Origin: Betaproteobacteria bacterium
Lineage (GTDB): Bacteria; Pseudomonadota; Gammaproteobacteria; Burkholderiales; Burkholderiaceae_F
DNA length: 33,406 nt
Reading direction: 5' to 3'
NCBI GenBank assembly: GCA_046316025.1
Contig: JBKCXU010000149.1
Coordinates: 1-33,406 of the forward strand
Within the stretch, counting starts at the first letter, position 1; the number at the start of each line of letters is the position of its first letter. Below are positions 15,255-22,237 of this stretch, piece by piece. The position numbers and the translations under genes are program-made. The notes below the pieces were generated by a model. That model was not told the DNA's origin, did no database searches, and saw nothing but the letters and a program-made list of their open reading frames with translations.

Positions 15255-16073
15255 TCAATCGGCCCGCGGCGGGGCGTCCGTGTCCGACGGCGCATCGCGC
15301 AACGCCGTTGCAAACAAGTCGTTTAACGCGCGCAGGCGGTCCGGCGACGGTGGCGCAGCGCGGCCGAACCGCACCGCGCTGCGCGCGAGCTCCGCTTCGA
15401 TGAAGGCGGTGAGCTGCGGAATCGCGGTCCCGACGTCCACCTCGGCTCCGGCGCGCTTGCGCGCAAGCAGCGCGTCGATCGCCCGGCGCAACGCCGGGTA
15501 CTCCGGCAGCAGCGCGAGCAAGCGGTCGAACTCGATCGGCGGCGGCGCGGCGTGCCGCTCGATCCACCGCGCCGCCAGCAGCGGGCGCAGCACGTAGAAG
15601 TACTTCTTCAGCCGCACCGTCTCGCCGCGCAGGTAGCCGCGGTAGTTGGTCGCCGCCATCTGCCGGTAGTGATGCCAGCCGGCGGCCAGCGAGTAGGTCT
15701 GCGGCAACAGGCGCAGCGCCTCGGCGCGAAAGGGTTCGCGCGCCAAGTACTCGATTGGCGATTGCAGCCATTCGACAATCGCCGGATTTGACTTGCGCAG
15801 CAGCCGCAGCGCCTTGCGCACGTCCCAGCCGTTGCAGTCGATCGCGTCGACGATCGGGTGCTCGATCACGTCGCGCCGCTCGTCGATGTCGATCGACAGG
15901 TACCAGGATTGCGGTCGCACGTAGACGAAGCGCACGTCGTAGTCGCTGTCGGCCGAGGCAAAGCCCCAGGCGCGGCTGCCGGACTCGACCGCGAACAGGA
16001 TGCGCACGCCTTCCGCCTGCTCGGCGGCATGCAGGCGGCGCAGGACTTCGGTGCGAACGGTGGCGGGGATCAT
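15255..16073 (-). CDS. Pol-beta superfamily nucleotidyltransferase of the COG3541 type (the family I recall being called RlaP in surveys of RtcB/Ro RNA-repair operons). Start trimmed to MIPATVRTEV.
   Basis: Motif ILFAVESGSRAWGFASADSDYDVRFVYV (GS...[DE]x[DE] nucleotidyltransferase fold) plus a long helical C-terminal domain. Confidence 0.6.
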   Translation of the reverse strand: MIPATVRTEVLRRLHAAEQAEGVRILFAVESGSRAWGFASADSDYDVRFVYVRPQSWYLSIDIDERRDVIEHPIVDAIDCNGWDVRKALRLLRKSNPAIVEWLQSPIEYLAREPFRAEALRLLPQTYSLAAGWHHYRQMAATNYRGYLRGETVRLKKYFYVLRPLLAARWIERHAAPPPIEFDRLLALLPEYPALRRAIDALLARKRAGAEVDVGTAIPQLTAFIEAELARSAVRFGRAAPPSPDRLRALNDLFATALRDAPSDTDAPPRAD

Positions 16074-16148
16074 CGGGCGAAGCGTAGTGCGGCGGCGGCG
16101 CGCCCGGAGCGCGACAAGAAGAAGTCCAACCTGGATTGCCAACGTTCA

Positions 16149-16186
16149 ACCCTCGCCGCGGACGCTCGCGCGCCCGCGGCGAGGGG
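16149..16186. repeat. GC-rich perfect palindrome CCCTCGCCGCGG-N12-CCGCGGCGAGGG just downstream of the SPFH stop. Same CCCCTCGCC...GGCGAGGG flavour as the repeat family.
   Basis: Read directly. No T-run follows, so it is not a clear intrinsic terminator. Confidence 0.5.
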
Positions 16187-16209
16187 TCTTGCTTGCTGCA
16201 ACAGTGCGC

Positions 16210-17352
16210 CTAGACGCGGATCTTCACCAGATCGCGCAGCACGCCGTCCAGGCCACCGAAAACGCTGATCTTGTCGATCTTCTCGGTGACCTTTTCCAGC
16301 GTCTCCAGCTCCTTGAGCCGCAGCGCGATCGGGCTGTCTTCCATCACGCGCGCGGTGTTGAGCAGCCTGCGGGTGGCGGCGGTTTCTTCGCGCCGGCGGA
16401 TGACGTTGGCCTGCGCGGCGCGCTCGGCTTCCACCACGCGGGCGAGGATGGTCTTCATCTCGCCCGGCAGGATGATGTCGCGCACGCCCACGCTGGCCAG
16501 CTCCAGACCCGCCGCCCGCGCGCACGGCGCCACGTGCTCGGCCACCGCGCGGTCGACTGCGCCCTTGTCGTCGAGCAGTTCGTCCAGCGTGCGCGCACCG
16601 ACCGCCGCGCGCAGGCCAAATTGCAGCTCGCGGTAGGCGAAGTCGAGCGGCTTGGCCTGCTGCGCAAAGGCCGCCAGCGCGTCGGCAAAGCGCAGGCCGG
16701 CGGTCAGGTTGATCCGCAGCGCCACCTTGTCGCGGGTCAGGATTTCCTGACCGGCGATTTCCAGCGGCTGGATGCGCAGATCGACGAGTTCCGCCCGCAG
16801 GTCGCGGTTGAAGCGCCAGAACGCGTGCAGCCCCAGCGCCAGCAGCTCGGCCGCCTTGCCGTCGACGAAGAGCAGTGCCACGTGGTGCTGCGGCACCTGC
16901 ACCGCCAGCACCTGCTCGGCGCCGGCCACCTTGGCGCGGGCCGCCGGGGTCGCCAGCAGCAGCGTCAGGCTGGGCGGCAGCGCAAAGCGCTCGCCGATGT
17001 CCACGCGCGCCACGCGCACATCGACAAAGCCCCTCCAGAAAAGGCGCCGCGTGTTGGGTGCCAGCACTTCGGCGAGCACGCCGTTCTCGTAGCGCAGGCC
17101 GACCTCGGTCGCGCCGAGCTGCACGTCGTGGAACTCGCGCTCCACCAGCGCCGGCTCGGCGTGGCGCAGGTAATCGGCGAGGCGGTGCTCGAACGCGGTC
17201 TTGCCGAGCGCGAACACCTCGACGGCGAGACGCCGCAGCGGGTCGAACAGCAGGTGCTCGCCGGCGTGCAGCACGCGGACGAAGTCGCCGCTGCGAAACA
17301 GCAGCGCGCGTTCGTCCTTCTTGACCAGAAACTTGCGGAACAGGAAGTTCAT
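16210..17352 (-). CDS. SPFH/band-7 (slipin-like) domain protein. Start trimmed to MNFLFRKFLVKKDERALLF.
   Basis: Band-7 features across ~380 aa (…RINLTAGLRFADALAAFAQQ…, coiled-coil C-terminus ARVVEAERAAQANVIRRREETAATRRL). GGAG-like RBS before the ATG at 17352. Confidence 0.7.
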   Translation of the reverse strand: MNFLFRKFLVKKDERALLFRSGDFVRVLHAGEHLLFDPLRRLAVEVFALGKTAFEHRLADYLRHAEPALVEREFHDVQLGATEVGLRYENGVLAEVLAPNTRRLFWRGFVDVRVARVDIGERFALPPSLTLLLATPAARAKVAGAEQVLAVQVPQHHVALLFVDGKAAELLALGLHAFWRFNRDLRAELVDLRIQPLEIAGQEILTRDKVALRINLTAGLRFADALAAFAQQAKPLDFAYRELQFGLRAAVGARTLDELLDDKGAVDRAVAEHVAPCARAAGLELASVGVRDIILPGEMKTILARVVEAERAAQANVIRRREETAATRRLLNTARVMEDSPIALRLKELETLEKVTEKIDKISVFGGLDGVLRDLVKIRV

Positions 17353-17645
17353 TTTGTAGTTCTCCAAAGAGCGAGTGAAAGAACGGAAGTGGGCGTGGCC
17401 TCCCGGCCAGCACGCGGCACCGCCGCGTGGCGCACCGAGGAGTACCGCCTGCGCCGCGCAGCACGCCACGCGCTGGCCCACGGGCCAGCGGCGGTGTGCC
17501 GGTTGAGCGGAAGACGGTTCGTCGGCGCGCGCCGGTGGGGCGCAAGCGCGATGGGCGGTGCCGGGGCCGTTGCGCGGCGCGCTCGTCTGCGCCGCTCGCC
17601 AGTCCCGGCCGAGGCCGGCCCGGTTTGAAGCAAACCCTTTACAGG

Positions 17646-17719
17646 GGTATCCCGCGGGAGTCGAACCCGCGACCGACGGTTTATGAGACCGTTGCTCTAC
17701 CCGACTGAGCTAGGGATGG
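17646..17719 (-). tRNA. tRNA(CAT) Met or Ile2-type. It has a classic D-arm (GCTC AGTCGGGTA GAGC), anticodon loop CTCATAA and T-arm GCGGG TTCGACT CCCGC. The top two acceptor pairs are mismatched, and its 5' end overlaps the CCA of the upstream tRNA-like element by 3 nt.
   Basis: Manual fold of the reverse complement. No CCA encoded. Acceptor is 5' CCATCCC / 3' GGGATAC (5 bp plus 2 terminal mismatches). Confidence 0.5.
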
Positions 17720-17795
17720 TGTCGAAACGGGGAATCGAACCCCGAGGTACGCCGCGGCGAGCCGCGACGCGCGTTTGCCATTTCGCCATTTCGAC
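17718..17795 (-). ncRNA. Anticodon-less tRNA-like element (tRNA pseudogene or Y-RNA-like tRNA mimic). It has a perfect 7-bp acceptor (GTCGAAA/TTTCGAC), discriminator A, encoded CCA, a canonical T-arm CGGGG TTCGATT CCCCG and a type-II-like D-arm GCG AAATGGCAAA CGC. The anticodon arm is replaced by an 8-bp stem with tetraloop (CGTCGCGG CTCG CCGCGGCG).
   Basis: Manual fold. No 5+7+5 anticodon arm is possible. The variable region is too short for a class II tRNA. Confidence 0.5.
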
Positions 17796-18055
17796 ACTAT
17801 TCGCCGGCGCCTTGCCGCGGTACGCGTGCGTCCGACGTACGGGACGGGAGCACGCGCCAGGCCGCACGCGATGCGGACCCGCTGACGACAGCTTGCCGGG
17901 CGAATGGGGGAGGCCGGCGCGCACGGCGCGCGCCGGCCGAACAAAGTCCCTGCAGCTCGCGCTCGCGCGCGACCGGACCGCTGCCGCCTGCACTTGCGCG
18001 CGGCGCAGACGACCCGGGCCGCGCCGTCCGGTGGCGTTGCGCAGCCCGTGGGAGG

Positions 18056-18078
18056 AAAAAGTGCCGGTTGCGTCCGGC
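18056..18078 (-). terminator. Putative rho-independent terminator (GCCGG ACGCAA CCGGC AC TTTTT) about 240 nt downstream of the HNH gene
   Basis: 5-bp GC stem plus T5 on the minus strand. Short stem, so moderate confidence. Confidence 0.4.
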
Positions 18079-21743: not shown

Positions 21744-21748
21744 AGATT

Positions 21749-21823
21749 TGGCGCCGCTTGCGGGTGCCGACCCCGCGGCCTTCCGCTGGACAGGCGGGTG
21801 CTCTGCCGTTGAGCTAAAGCGGC
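21749..21823 (-). tRNA. tRNA-Asp(GTC). T-loop GTCGGCA (G54/G58). CCA encoded.
   Basis: Acceptor GCCGCTT/AAGCGGC. D-arm GCTC AACGGCA GAGC. Loop CTGTCCA. Confidence 0.65.
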
Positions 21824-21870
21824 GTGGCGCAGAGAGTGCCCTTTGCCAGTTCCGGCATCTCTCCTTGAGC

Positions 21871-21946
21871 TGGTTGGCCGCCTGGGGCTCGAACCCAGAT
21901 CTGCCGGATCAAGAGTCCGGTTCCCTGCCACTCGGGAGCGCGGCCA
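21871..21946 (-). tRNA. tRNA-Lys(CTT). Canonical T-loop TTCGAGC. G8 and G14 instead of U8/A14. CCA encoded.
   Basis: Acceptor TGGCCGC/GCGGCCA is perfect. Anticodon arm CCGGA CTCTTGA TCCGG. Confidence 0.65.
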
Positions 21947-21952
21947 GCGCAT

Positions 21953-22024
21953 TGGAGGACCGACCGAGTAACGCTCTCGGCGTGCGGTGCTTGCAAGGCA
22001 CGGCTGCACCCTTGTGCTCGGCCC
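21953..22024 (-). tRNA. tRNA-Ala(TGC)-like, short (72 nt). 4-bp D-stem with 4-nt loop. T-loop AGCGTTA (A54/U58). CCA encoded.
   Basis: Acceptor GGGCCGA/TCGGTCC. Anticodon GTGC CTTGCAA GCAC. Confidence 0.4.
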
Positions 22025-22030
22025 GTGTTC

Positions 22031-22120
22031 TGGTGCGTCAGGCTGGGCATGATCCAGCAGCGGCCCCGGTGGGCTCCTGCTTTACAGGCAGGCGGGTTCA
22101 GCCAGCTTCCCTACTGACGC
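22031..22120 (-). tRNA. tRNA-Tyr(GTA), class II, 90 nt. T-loop ATCATGC (A54/U58). CCA encoded.
   Basis: Acceptor GCGTCAG/CTGACGC. Anticodon arm CCTGC CTGTAAA GCAGG. Variable GCCC ACCG GGGC. Confidence 0.65.
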
Positions 22121-22161
22121 GTGCCATGCGCCAACGCACGGCCCGGCCATGCGCTGGCGAA

Positions 22162-22237
22162 TGGTGCGGGCGCCCGGGAACGATCCGAGGCCTCGACGTT
22201 GGCAACGTCGCGTGCTGCCGATTGACACCACGCCCGC
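22162..22237 (-). tRNA. tRNA-Gly(GCC), first gene of the array. T-loop ATCGTTC (A54/U58). CCA encoded.
   Basis: Acceptor GCGGGCG/CGCCCGC. Anticodon arm CGACG TTGCCAA CGTCG is perfect. Confidence 0.7.

Follow-up and report, generated by a model that had tools for sequence, protein, structure and literature searches.

A tRNA array with an HNH endonuclease gene joined to an RtcB/band-7 RNA-repair operon in a probable mobile cassette of Burkholderiales

In Anabaena sp. PCC 7120 a long tRNA array (L-array) is silent until it is induced by translation inhibitors, when it aids survival, and rtcB and the HNH endonuclease gene all8564 are co-induced with it (PMC8421152). L-arrays contribute redundant isodecoders and no new anticodons (PMC8421152). 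Further work identified TrcR as the repressor of this array and also of rtcB all3526 (77-fold), of all8564 (17-fold) and of the slipin gene alr0740 (42-fold), and its authors called TrcR functionally equivalent to RtcR (PMC10272220). On the side of RNA repair, RtcB, band-7 proteins, the tRNA-like RNA known as b7a-tRNA and the nucleotidyltransferase RlaP were proposed to form one system by Burroughs and Aravind (2016), as that work is cited in bioRxiv 10.1101/312249 and PMC12776372. The pairs b7a-tRNA/band-7 and YrlA/Ro appear interchangeable, and as of 2018 a role of the band-7 protein and its tRNA-like RNA as cofactor of RtcB was a comparative-genomic prediction without experimental validation (bioRxiv 10.1101/312249). 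Two Pseudomonas RlaP proteins add one or two nucleoside monophosphates to damaged RNA 3' ends in vitro (PMC12776372). Here we describe a locus in which the parts of both systems lie side by side. It is found on contig JBKCXU010000149.1 of a Betaproteobacteria bacterium (assembly GCA_046316025.1), the whole analysed stretch of which, 33,406 nucleotides with a G+C content of about 69%, is referred to as the window.

The region is probably a mobile Burkholderiales cassette for translation rescue and RNA repair in which two known modules have been fused. The first module is a long tRNA array of phage type with a companion HNH endonuclease gene, preceded by a gene for a CI-like repressor, a sigma-70-type promoter with a palindromic operator and a boxA element. 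The second is an RNA-repair operon of RtcB, a band-7 (slipin) protein, b7a-tRNA and RlaP. In the direction of transcription the order is a type I restriction-modification operon with inserted genes, hipB, a split hipA, a 157-residue open reading frame (ORF; 23162-22689), 14 tRNA genes and rtcB, followed by a Gln-like RNA, a REP palindrome, the HNH gene, about 525 nt of non-coding sequence, two tRNA-like elements, slipin and RlaP (Table 1). The cassette with its switch measures about 8 kb, and every element that a first-pass annotation of this DNA had listed as co-oriented was found on the minus strand where that annotation had placed it. The same gene order is present in dozens of other loci, so the layout is far from chance. 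That annotation had proposed a coherent RNA-repair or RNA-conflict module and had named as fatal to the idea that the homologues should never co-localise; the proposal stands and the objection fails, because the parts co-localise in many genomes.

Table 1. Features of the cassette and its control region in order of transcription (coordinates are those of the window)
Feature	Coordinates	Strand	Remarks
Operator-like half-palindrome CGTAAACCGCTTTAGC	23171..23186	-	just upstream of regulator gene; same motif before L009 orthologue
CI-like helix-turn-helix regulator, 157 residues	22689..23162	-	profile match to phage repressor CI
Sigma-70-type promoter TTGACC-17-TAGCAT	22664..22692	-	only promoter-like site in 15000-23500
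Palindrome GCTAAACTGCTTTAGC	22681-22666	-	over -10 box of sigma-70-type promoter
Terminator-like hairpin + T-run in array leader	22390..22430 (site 22412-22400)	-	conserved in L009
boxA antitermination element GCTCTTTAACAA	22326..22337	-	about 90-100 nt upstream of first tRNA
tRNA array	20583..22237	-	14 tRNAs by ARAGORN, 1.65 kb
rtcB RNA ligase, 402 residues	19303..20511	-	Pfam RtcB E=3.6e-126, model positions 1-426 (full length)
Degenerate tRNA-Gln(CUG)-like RNA	19200..19277	-	tRNA-shaped, CUCUGAA loop, encoded NCCA tail
REP-type palindrome	19093..19154	n/a	26-nt arms, 96% complementary
HNH endonuclease, 187 residues	18320..18883	-	HNH_5 E=8e-16; AAGGAGG ribosome-binding site
Non-coding element after HNH stop, about 110 nt	18061..18169	-	contains GCGCAGATAGCGCGC; ends in hairpin GCCGGACGCAACCGGC + T-run
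b7a RNA module 1, anticodon-less	17717..17795	-	odd ARAGORN call 'tRNA-Ala ggc'
b7a RNA module 2 ('tRNA(CAT)')	17644..17719	-	cloverleaf; Rfam tRNA 54.6 bits
Slipin/band-7 (SPFH) protein, 380 residues	16210..17352	-	Pfam Band_7 E=2.8e-22
RlaP nucleotidyltransferase (PF10127)	15255..16142	-	Pfam E=1.7e-88

Evidence for the cassette as a recurring unit came from two sets of related loci, numbered here with the prefix L. A protein search with the HNH gave seven relatives, which led to eight more loci with readable DNA (L009-L012 share the protein P0007; P0002 is not included). The six genome relatives of the HNH are all from Burkholderiales. Of the 12 HNH loci that include sequence upstream, 11 have a tRNA array directly before the HNH gene on the same strand, and RtcB together with slipin or Ro60 is found nearby in all of these loci. 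A metagenome scan with a slipin profile then contributed 80 more loci, and in total 42 slipin loci have 2.5 kb or more of sequence upstream. Upstream of slipin there is a tRNA array in 25 of the 42 (17 of these 25 with an HNH gene between array and b7a RNA), RtcR without an array in 12, an HNH gene only in four and neither in one, proportions that are indicative and do not amount to a census. Array and RtcR occur together in none of the 42 (Fisher p = 5.6e-7 for mutual exclusion). In eight loci the array abuts the b7a RNA with no HNH gene between them.

The promoters follow the same division. Of the 15 scanned loci with a tblastn match to RtcR, 13 have a sigma-54 promoter (TGGCAC-N5-YYGC) ahead of the tRNA-like tandem; the other two (L007 and L049) are of the array type, and this promoter is present in no array-type locus and not in the window. 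In the window tblastn gave no match to RtcR, and the site TGGCAC-N5-TTGC does not occur in 17796-18320. The canonical sister form, which is found in Burkholderia and Ralstonia replicons and in metagenomes, runs from a divergent rtcR through a sigma-54 promoter, a tRNA-like RNA, slipin and rtcB to RlaP, in some cases with rtcA. Judged by gene order, the array, the HNH gene and the CI-like regulator gene stand where RtcR and the sigma-54 promoter stand in these sister operons, and not, as had been suggested for the tRNA set and the HNH gene, in the place of Ro/Rsr. The position of rtcB is variable, on one side of the HNH gene or the other depending on the locus. Of the loci collected, the one most closely related to the window comes from a Burkholderiales metagenome-assembled genome (L003), with 86-96% nucleotide identity over the shared parts. 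Culturable Burkholderiales that carry the cassette include Variovorax, Methylibium, Caldimonas, Ideonella and Rhizobacter, among them Variovorax paradoxus, Caldimonas sp. KR1-144, Ideonella lacteola and Methylibium petroleiphilum PM1, the last on its megaplasmid.

Several putative control elements precede the array. A profile of the regulator (the window ORF and 15 homologues, 16 sequences) matches the phage CI repressor 7nkv with E=2.2e-4, and Cro proteins, in a PDB profile search; the regulator has no Pfam match. Homologues of the regulator adjoin the start of the array in 17 other loci and are found in no RtcR-type locus. The stop codon of the regulator gene overlaps that of the sigma-70-type promoter's boxes which lies at -35. 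This promoter, the palindrome and the half-site before the regulator gene are all conserved in L009; the operator palindrome is confined to the clade of the window and L009, and loci whose regulator gene is divergent gave no match to it. The first-pass annotation had drawn attention to phage-style content, including a 'CII-like' regulator. The phage connection is borne out by the regulator, which is CI-like, and by the HNH family, whose genes in phages have tRNA clusters as neighbours (at least 58 of 80 contigs, see below). Between the promoter and the terminator-like hairpin of the array leader there is also a 48-codon ORF (22457-22603, minus strand), which is weakly conserved, only its C-terminus (DP..DPGGxG) resembling the L009 counterpart. 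It may be a leader peptide or nothing.

Downstream of this hairpin lies GCTCTTTAACAA, which fits the boxA consensus GYTCTTTAANA (PMC5725501) perfectly. An exact or one-mismatch boxA is present in 27 sources, in about 20 of them 60-120 nt ahead of the first array tRNA. The hits are always on the sense strand and never on the reverse, and none is in an RtcR-type locus; the chance expectation for exact matches in the same amount of sequence is about 0.1. Besides the window the boxA-bearing loci are L007-L010, L016, L019, L024, L048, L049, L051, L053, L056, L062, L077 and others. Antitermination by boxA and Nus factors has been described for rRNA operons and CRISPR arrays (PMC7665894), and by analogy boxA should shield the long untranslated array transcript from termination by Rho. 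In the searchable literature no link between boxA and tRNA arrays was found.

The array itself runs Gly-Tyr-Lys-Asp-Arg-Asn-Glu-Phe-Cys-Leu-Leu-His-Pro-Ser, a gene order that matches the array of 21-22 genes in L009 and L010. Its members score 34.5-56 bits with the Rfam tRNA model, Glu and Asn falling below threshold, and the 3'-CCA is encoded in 12 of the 14, again not in Asn and Glu. It has the traits by which L-arrays are recognised, with many tandem, non-periodic tRNA genes, a patchy spread by horizontal transfer, an HNH gene and rtcB nearby and relatives on megaplasmids and phage contigs. The commonest members of the arrays are His-GTG, Asp-GTC, Leu-CAG, Arg-ACG and Glu-TTC.

The RNA called tRNA-Gln in the first-pass annotation does start 25 nt past the rtcB stop, as stated there, but the label of a tRNA does not hold. 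It is uncalled by ARAGORN and has no Rfam tRNA match even at E<=10. The D arm and the T loop (UGCGAGU) deviate from the norm, while the cloverleaf-like overall fold and the CCA are kept. The element is retained in L003, L004 and L009, where changes in its anticodon stem and T stem compensate one another, and is best described, from its predicted fold, as a pseudo-tRNA or tRNA-like RNA and no canonical tRNA. Since a tRNA-Gln gene takes the last or next-to-last place ahead of the HNH gene in five loci (L013, L015, L017, L064 and L077), the element is probably a displaced last member of the array. The REP hairpin that follows it was also present as annotated. A similar palindrome occurs in L003 on the opposite side of the Gln-like RNA, so the two were inserted independently.

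The HNH protein has a beta-rich N-terminal domain followed by an HNH domain of the Cas9/IscB/McrA type. This domain is of the beta-beta-alpha-metal kind and nearest to the HNH domain of Cas9 and IscB, to McrA and to the Gme nickase, so that a nuclease of DNA type is predicted. Nucleases of this kind leave 5'-phosphate and 3'-hydroxyl ends, which RtcB cannot join. A role for the HNH as an RNA toxin was considered and rejected on both grounds, the DNA-type fold and the end chemistry. The gene is free-standing, outside any intron or intein. Full-length relatives are present on all six Variovorax megaplasmids that have been reported with tRNA arrays (PMC7313664) and on Polaromonas, Methylibium and Burkholderia plasmids. 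On Nostoc plasmids an HNH gene adjoins long tRNA arrays (33% identity over residues 33-153), and in the Salicola jumbo phage SCTP-2 a relative lies inside a tRNA cluster. A profile search found full-length relatives in at least 565 phage contigs; among the best 80 of these a tRNA lies within 3 kb in 58 and three or more tRNAs in 42, with the tRNAs and the HNH gene sharing a strand in every case. A single-sequence search with the HNH gave no match in the phage contigs, nor did a search with the slipin, and there is no RtcB in the flanking sequence examined of the contigs with HNH. Because its relatives adjoin arrays or clusters in phages, on Variovorax megaplasmids and on Nostoc plasmids, this HNH is a companion of tRNA arrays across phyla and phages. 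A homing role was proposed for the Anabaena HNH all8564 (PMC8421152), and by analogy a homing-type role is the simplest reading for the enzyme of the window. As a separate observation, four phage contigs with the array-type HNH (L106, L112, L126 and L148) have a Ro60 homologue within 6 kb, which hints that phage-borne Ro/tRNA modules exist.

Between the HNH gene and slipin the first-pass annotation had placed a terminator, an anticodon-less tRNA-like RNA and a tRNA(CAT). The terminator is a short hairpin with a T-run at 18078-18063, which is present but scored no better than chance in a scan, and it lies inside the non-coding element of about 110 nt that follows the HNH stop. This element is highly conserved in five relatives, including L003, L004, L009 and L018, and has no Rfam match. 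In L009 (at about 10700-11000) and L018, between HNH gene and b7a RNA, there is an apparent small ORF, seen by eye, that ends in a motif of SEC-C type (CPCGSGRRFKHCC); the window lacks this ORF.

The anticodon-less RNA was found as described, at 17795-17717 and with an encoded CCA, and together with the 'tRNA(CAT)' it constitutes the b7a-tRNA, which here consists of two tRNA-like modules in tandem. In about 60 distinct loci the sequence ahead of the slipin gene contains two T-loops, spaced by 71-78 nt. Module 1 has an acceptor stem of 7 bp, a T arm and, standing in for the anticodon arm, an 8-bp stem capped by a tetraloop; its encoded ACCA ends in a CCA that directly abuts module 2 here and in most array-type loci. 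Its form is heterogeneous among loci, with a complete tRNA shape at one extreme and a mini form at the other. Module 2 has an acceptor stem of 4-5 bp, with about five pairs in the window copy, where the top of the stem is missing and there is no CCA. An alignment of 58 sequences supports the structure of module 2, in that 95.6% of cells are paired compared with 78% after shuffling and 34-45% with slid partner columns, and both sides have changed in 13 of 19 pairs. Its acceptor stem is supported for four pairs, the fifth being paired in 26 of the 58. The triplet in its 'anticodon' loop takes 26 different values among orthologues, so module 2 is not a decoder, and with its short acceptor and lack of CCA the annotation as a canonical tRNA had to be given up. 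Support for module 1 is weaker than for module 2, because a naive search for its acceptor stem did no better than the slid control. It comes from ARAGORN calls, from the conserved spacing of the T-loops and from acceptor, stem and T-stem sequences that differ in L009 and L018 yet stay complementary.

The protein genes of the repair module were identified much as the first-pass annotation had them. The rtcB gene follows the array with its own ribosome-binding site (GGAG), 71 nt after tRNA-Ser, and the motifs GGGNHF and CSHGAGR, of metal- and GMP-binding, are visible in the translation, which places the product by its sequence in the RtcB family (PF01139). Slipin is 55-82% identical to the slipins of about 90 related loci, in most of which it is linked to RtcB. 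The COG3541-type nucleotidyltransferase belongs to RlaP (PF10127), with a probable start at an internal ATG near 16073, and is found in many sister loci, not in all. A band-7 gene near rtcB, a tRNA-like RNA directly upstream of it and an associated RlaP are the hallmarks of the RtcB/band-7/b7a-tRNA system, and that these parts and the tRNA-like RNA belong together, as the annotation held, is in agreement with the proposal of Burroughs and Aravind (2016) as reported in bioRxiv 10.1101/312249. No PADLOC family matched slipin, RlaP, RtcB or the regulator, the matches being generic HNH-domain ones only.

The lack of a Ro/Rsr partner had been noted in the first-pass annotation, and tblastn indeed gave no match to Ro60 in the window, but the slot is not empty. 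It is filled by the slipin and the tRNA-like b7a RNA, a known alternative, and this explains why Ro/Rsr is lacking. Membership of the RNA in the YrlA family was rejected, as the Rfam model gave 24.5 bits, far below the gathering score of 69.

On one side the island is bounded by a convergent type IV minor-pilin cluster (fimT, pilV/W/X/Y1/E). The cluster includes a gene for a 1958-residue protein with a PilY1 domain (5641-11517, minus strand), which far exceeds the 411-position PilY1 beta-propeller model that it matches and has internal 36-nt repeats at 9523-10152. On the other side hipB (HTH_31 domain) and hipA adjoin the regulator gene. The hipA gene is split over two frames, with the N-terminal part in ORF 24547-24095 and the HipA_C domain (Pfam E=6.6e-39) in ORF 24653-23319 (minus strand), and is either a pseudogene or frameshift or the product of a sequencing error. 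HipA is a kinase. A homologue of hipA is present in only one further locus (L086, 28% identity). A flanking PIN toxin that had been suggested was not recovered, there being no PIN domain in the ORFs scanned. Beyond hipBA, two segments of the hsdM 5' end (26495-26753 and 28411-28525) are duplicated with 90-91% identity about 1.8-1.9 kb apart. Because these segments lie on both sides of a Schlafen/AlbA_2-HATPase gene (26775-28232), an insertion of this gene into the type I restriction-modification operon with partial duplication of hsdM is suggested. Long ORFs contain REP-like palindromes rich in G+C and 39-nt tandem repeats ('CCCTCCCC...GGGGAGGG' type), at 25360-25448, 1-154 and 32146-32262; one gives the C-terminal part of the hsdM product a Pro/Gly-rich stretch, and another lies inside the hsdR ORF. 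In other loci (L011/L012 at 5100-8800 and L009 at 1-4260) the cassette adjoins other likely defence genes, namely an AAA_15/OLD-like ATPase with a UvrD helicase, which form a Gabija-like pair, and a pair of AAA_5 and DUF4132.

As to how the cassette might work, we propose that the CI-like repressor would hold the unit silent and that the promoter would fire upon a block of translation or the cutting of tRNAs, as caused by ribotoxins, anticodon nucleases, toxin-antitoxin RNases or ribosome-targeting antibiotics. The boxA would then recruit Nus factors and allow RNA polymerase to cross the untranslated array without Rho termination. The spare tRNAs would replenish or shield the damaged pool, a role as supply or decoys that the first-pass annotation had also envisaged and that agrees with the proposal made for the Anabaena array (PMC8421152). 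RtcB would join 3'-phosphate or 2',3'-cyclic-phosphate ends to 5'-hydroxyl ends and RlaP would restore one or two lost 3' nucleotides. The slipin and the tandem tRNA-like RNA may serve as scaffold or cofactor, as Ro does with Y RNA, and the HNH would act on DNA, most likely spreading or maintaining the array like a homing-type enzyme. A bolder version, which we hold to be possible while doubting it, makes the cassette a self-regulated mobile anti-ribotoxin system of phage ancestry. The CI-like repressor and boxA would be its switch, the slipin-bound tandem RNA a bait, sensor or assembly platform for tRNA-cleaving toxins and the array a source of replacement or decoy tRNAs, with RtcB and RlaP mending the damage. 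If true, this would unite two puzzles, the purpose of long tRNA arrays and the role of band-7 and b7a-tRNA.

Several points weigh against a single cassette with a joint function. A single long transcript is not established, because one terminator-like hairpin precedes boxA in the leader (22430-22390) and another follows the HNH gene (18078-18063), and the part formed by b7a RNA, slipin and RlaP may have its own promoter. Two of the 14 array tRNAs look degenerate. In the 95%-identical L003, rtcB is interrupted at codon ~274 by an IS3-family element (orfA/orfB; L003 1-1240, contig end) and RlaP is lost, with a 62-nt remnant left (L003 4633-4700); selection on the repair half is therefore not strict, and this half is decaying in the L003 lineage. 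The product of RlaP (3'-OH) is chemically incompatible with RtcB (3'-P) according to the authors of the RlaP study themselves (PMC12776372). The 80 metagenome loci were picked by their similarity to the window slipin. Lastly, the adjacency of the two modules could stem partly from a preference of the HNH/array element for insertion into tRNA-like DNA.

Taken to its full extent this last point becomes the strongest rival, though we think it unlikely. Array and HNH would be a selfish phage-derived element homing into tRNA or tRNA-like DNA, like T4 SegB, with the b7a and Y-RNA genes as favoured targets and the repair operon independent of it. It would account well for the abundance of the HNH beside phage tRNA clusters that have no RtcB in the flanks examined, for its position next to arrays on Nostoc plasmids and Variovorax megaplasmids and for arrays that adjoin band-7-type and Ro60-type RtcB operons alike, both of which have tRNA-like RNA genes (L015, L016, L049). 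The varying side of the HNH gene on which rtcB lies points to repeated rearrangement, and a homing role for this type of HNH has been proposed (PMC8421152). On the other hand, in Anabaena the array, rtcB, HNH and slipin genes are dispersed and yet come under one repressor and one stress response, which argues for function rather than adjacency. RtcR and the sigma-54 promoter have been lost in array-type loci every time, so the repair genes there need the control region of the array or some other promoter. The eight loci in which the array abuts the b7a RNA with no HNH gene between them also speak against the insertion of array and HNH as the whole explanation.

Improbable in our view is a generic accessory tRNA island that tunes tRNA supply to the codon usage of acquired genes and has no link to RNA damage. 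Codons of His-GTG, Asp-GTC, Leu-CAG, Arg-ACG and Glu-TTC, the commonest array members, are expected to be frequent in a high-G+C genome, which would fit such an island. The arrays of the Variovorax megaplasmids have also been discussed in terms of codon usage (PMC7313664). This explanation does not account for the repeated, tight association of the arrays with RtcB, with slipin or Ro60, with the HNH and with a dedicated repressor, nor for the silence and stress induction of the Anabaena array, and arrays add redundant isodecoders rather than new anticodons. Less probable still is a toxin-antidote module, as put forward in the first-pass annotation, in which the HNH or HipA would damage RNA, RtcB and RlaP would repair it and the tRNAs would buffer the loss: a nuclease gene is always embedded in the cassette and hipBA adjoins the regulator gene, but the HNH is of DNA type with 3'-OH/5'-P ends that by established knowledge are no substrates for RtcB, hipA is frameshifted here and recurs only in L086, and slipin, RlaP, RtcB and the regulator are without a PADLOC family match.

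The fused cassette, which remains the reading we prefer, would have consequences for both fields. Each half is known, and what appear to be undescribed are the fusion in many Burkholderiales, the swap of RtcR and sigma-54 promoter for a CI-like repressor and boxA, and the arrangement of the b7a RNA as a tandem. The article of Burroughs and Aravind (2016), drawn on here through a citing paper, may note the arrays or the tandem already. The cassette puts the parts known from Anabaena and from band-7/RtcB operons, with a switch, together in culturable Burkholderiales, and the functions of a long tRNA array and of b7a RNA are therefore directly testable. The alternation of RtcR and sigma-54 with array, CI-like repressor and boxA suggests that bacteria can switch on RNA repair in at least two ways that are interchangeable. 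With boxA before tRNA arrays, a third class of long non-coding array, after rRNA operons and CRISPR arrays, would come under Nus-dependent antitermination.

Compared with the boxA of rrn operons and CRISPR arrays (PMC7665894, PMC5725501), the element of the window shares the consensus and the position just upstream of a long untranslated array of structured RNA; it would act as those do and differs in its cargo, a tRNA array followed by protein-coding genes. Phage tRNA clusters with free-standing homing endonucleases (T4 SegB, PMC8421152) likewise have the endonuclease gene in or abutting the cluster and on the same strand, SegB being a GIY-YIG enzyme and that of the window an HNH. The Salmonella operon of Rsr(Ro60), YrlA-YrlB, RtcB and RtcA with RtcR (PMC7790460, PMC4201824) has in common with the cassette an RtcB, a non-coding RNA that mimics tRNA and a putative scaffold protein. 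The window differs from it in giving no tblastn match to Ro60 or RtcR and a YrlA score of 24.5 bits against 69, whereas the cassette relatives L015 and L016 carry Ro60 in the place of slipin, as the Salmonella operon does. With the RtcB/band-7/b7a-tRNA/RlaP operon the window shares RtcB, a slipin preceded by a tRNA-like RNA, a PF10127 RlaP and the single orientation. It lacks the RtcR and the sigma-54 promoter of that operon, and rtcB has moved upstream of the HNH gene; array, HNH, CI-like repressor and boxA have come in on the control side and the b7a RNA is a tandem. The L-array and TrcR regulon of Anabaena have the same long, non-periodic and horizontally spread array with an HNH gene beside it and a link to rtcB. 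There the parts are scattered, with the array on a megaplasmid and rtcB and slipin on the chromosome, whereas in the window all are contiguous and the HNH gene lies downstream of the array. TrcR is a ribbon-helix-helix protein confined to cyanobacteria, and the regulator of the window is a CI-like helix-turn-helix protein. The Burkholderiales cassette is thus the Anabaena parts list made contiguous and placed under a repressor of another family.

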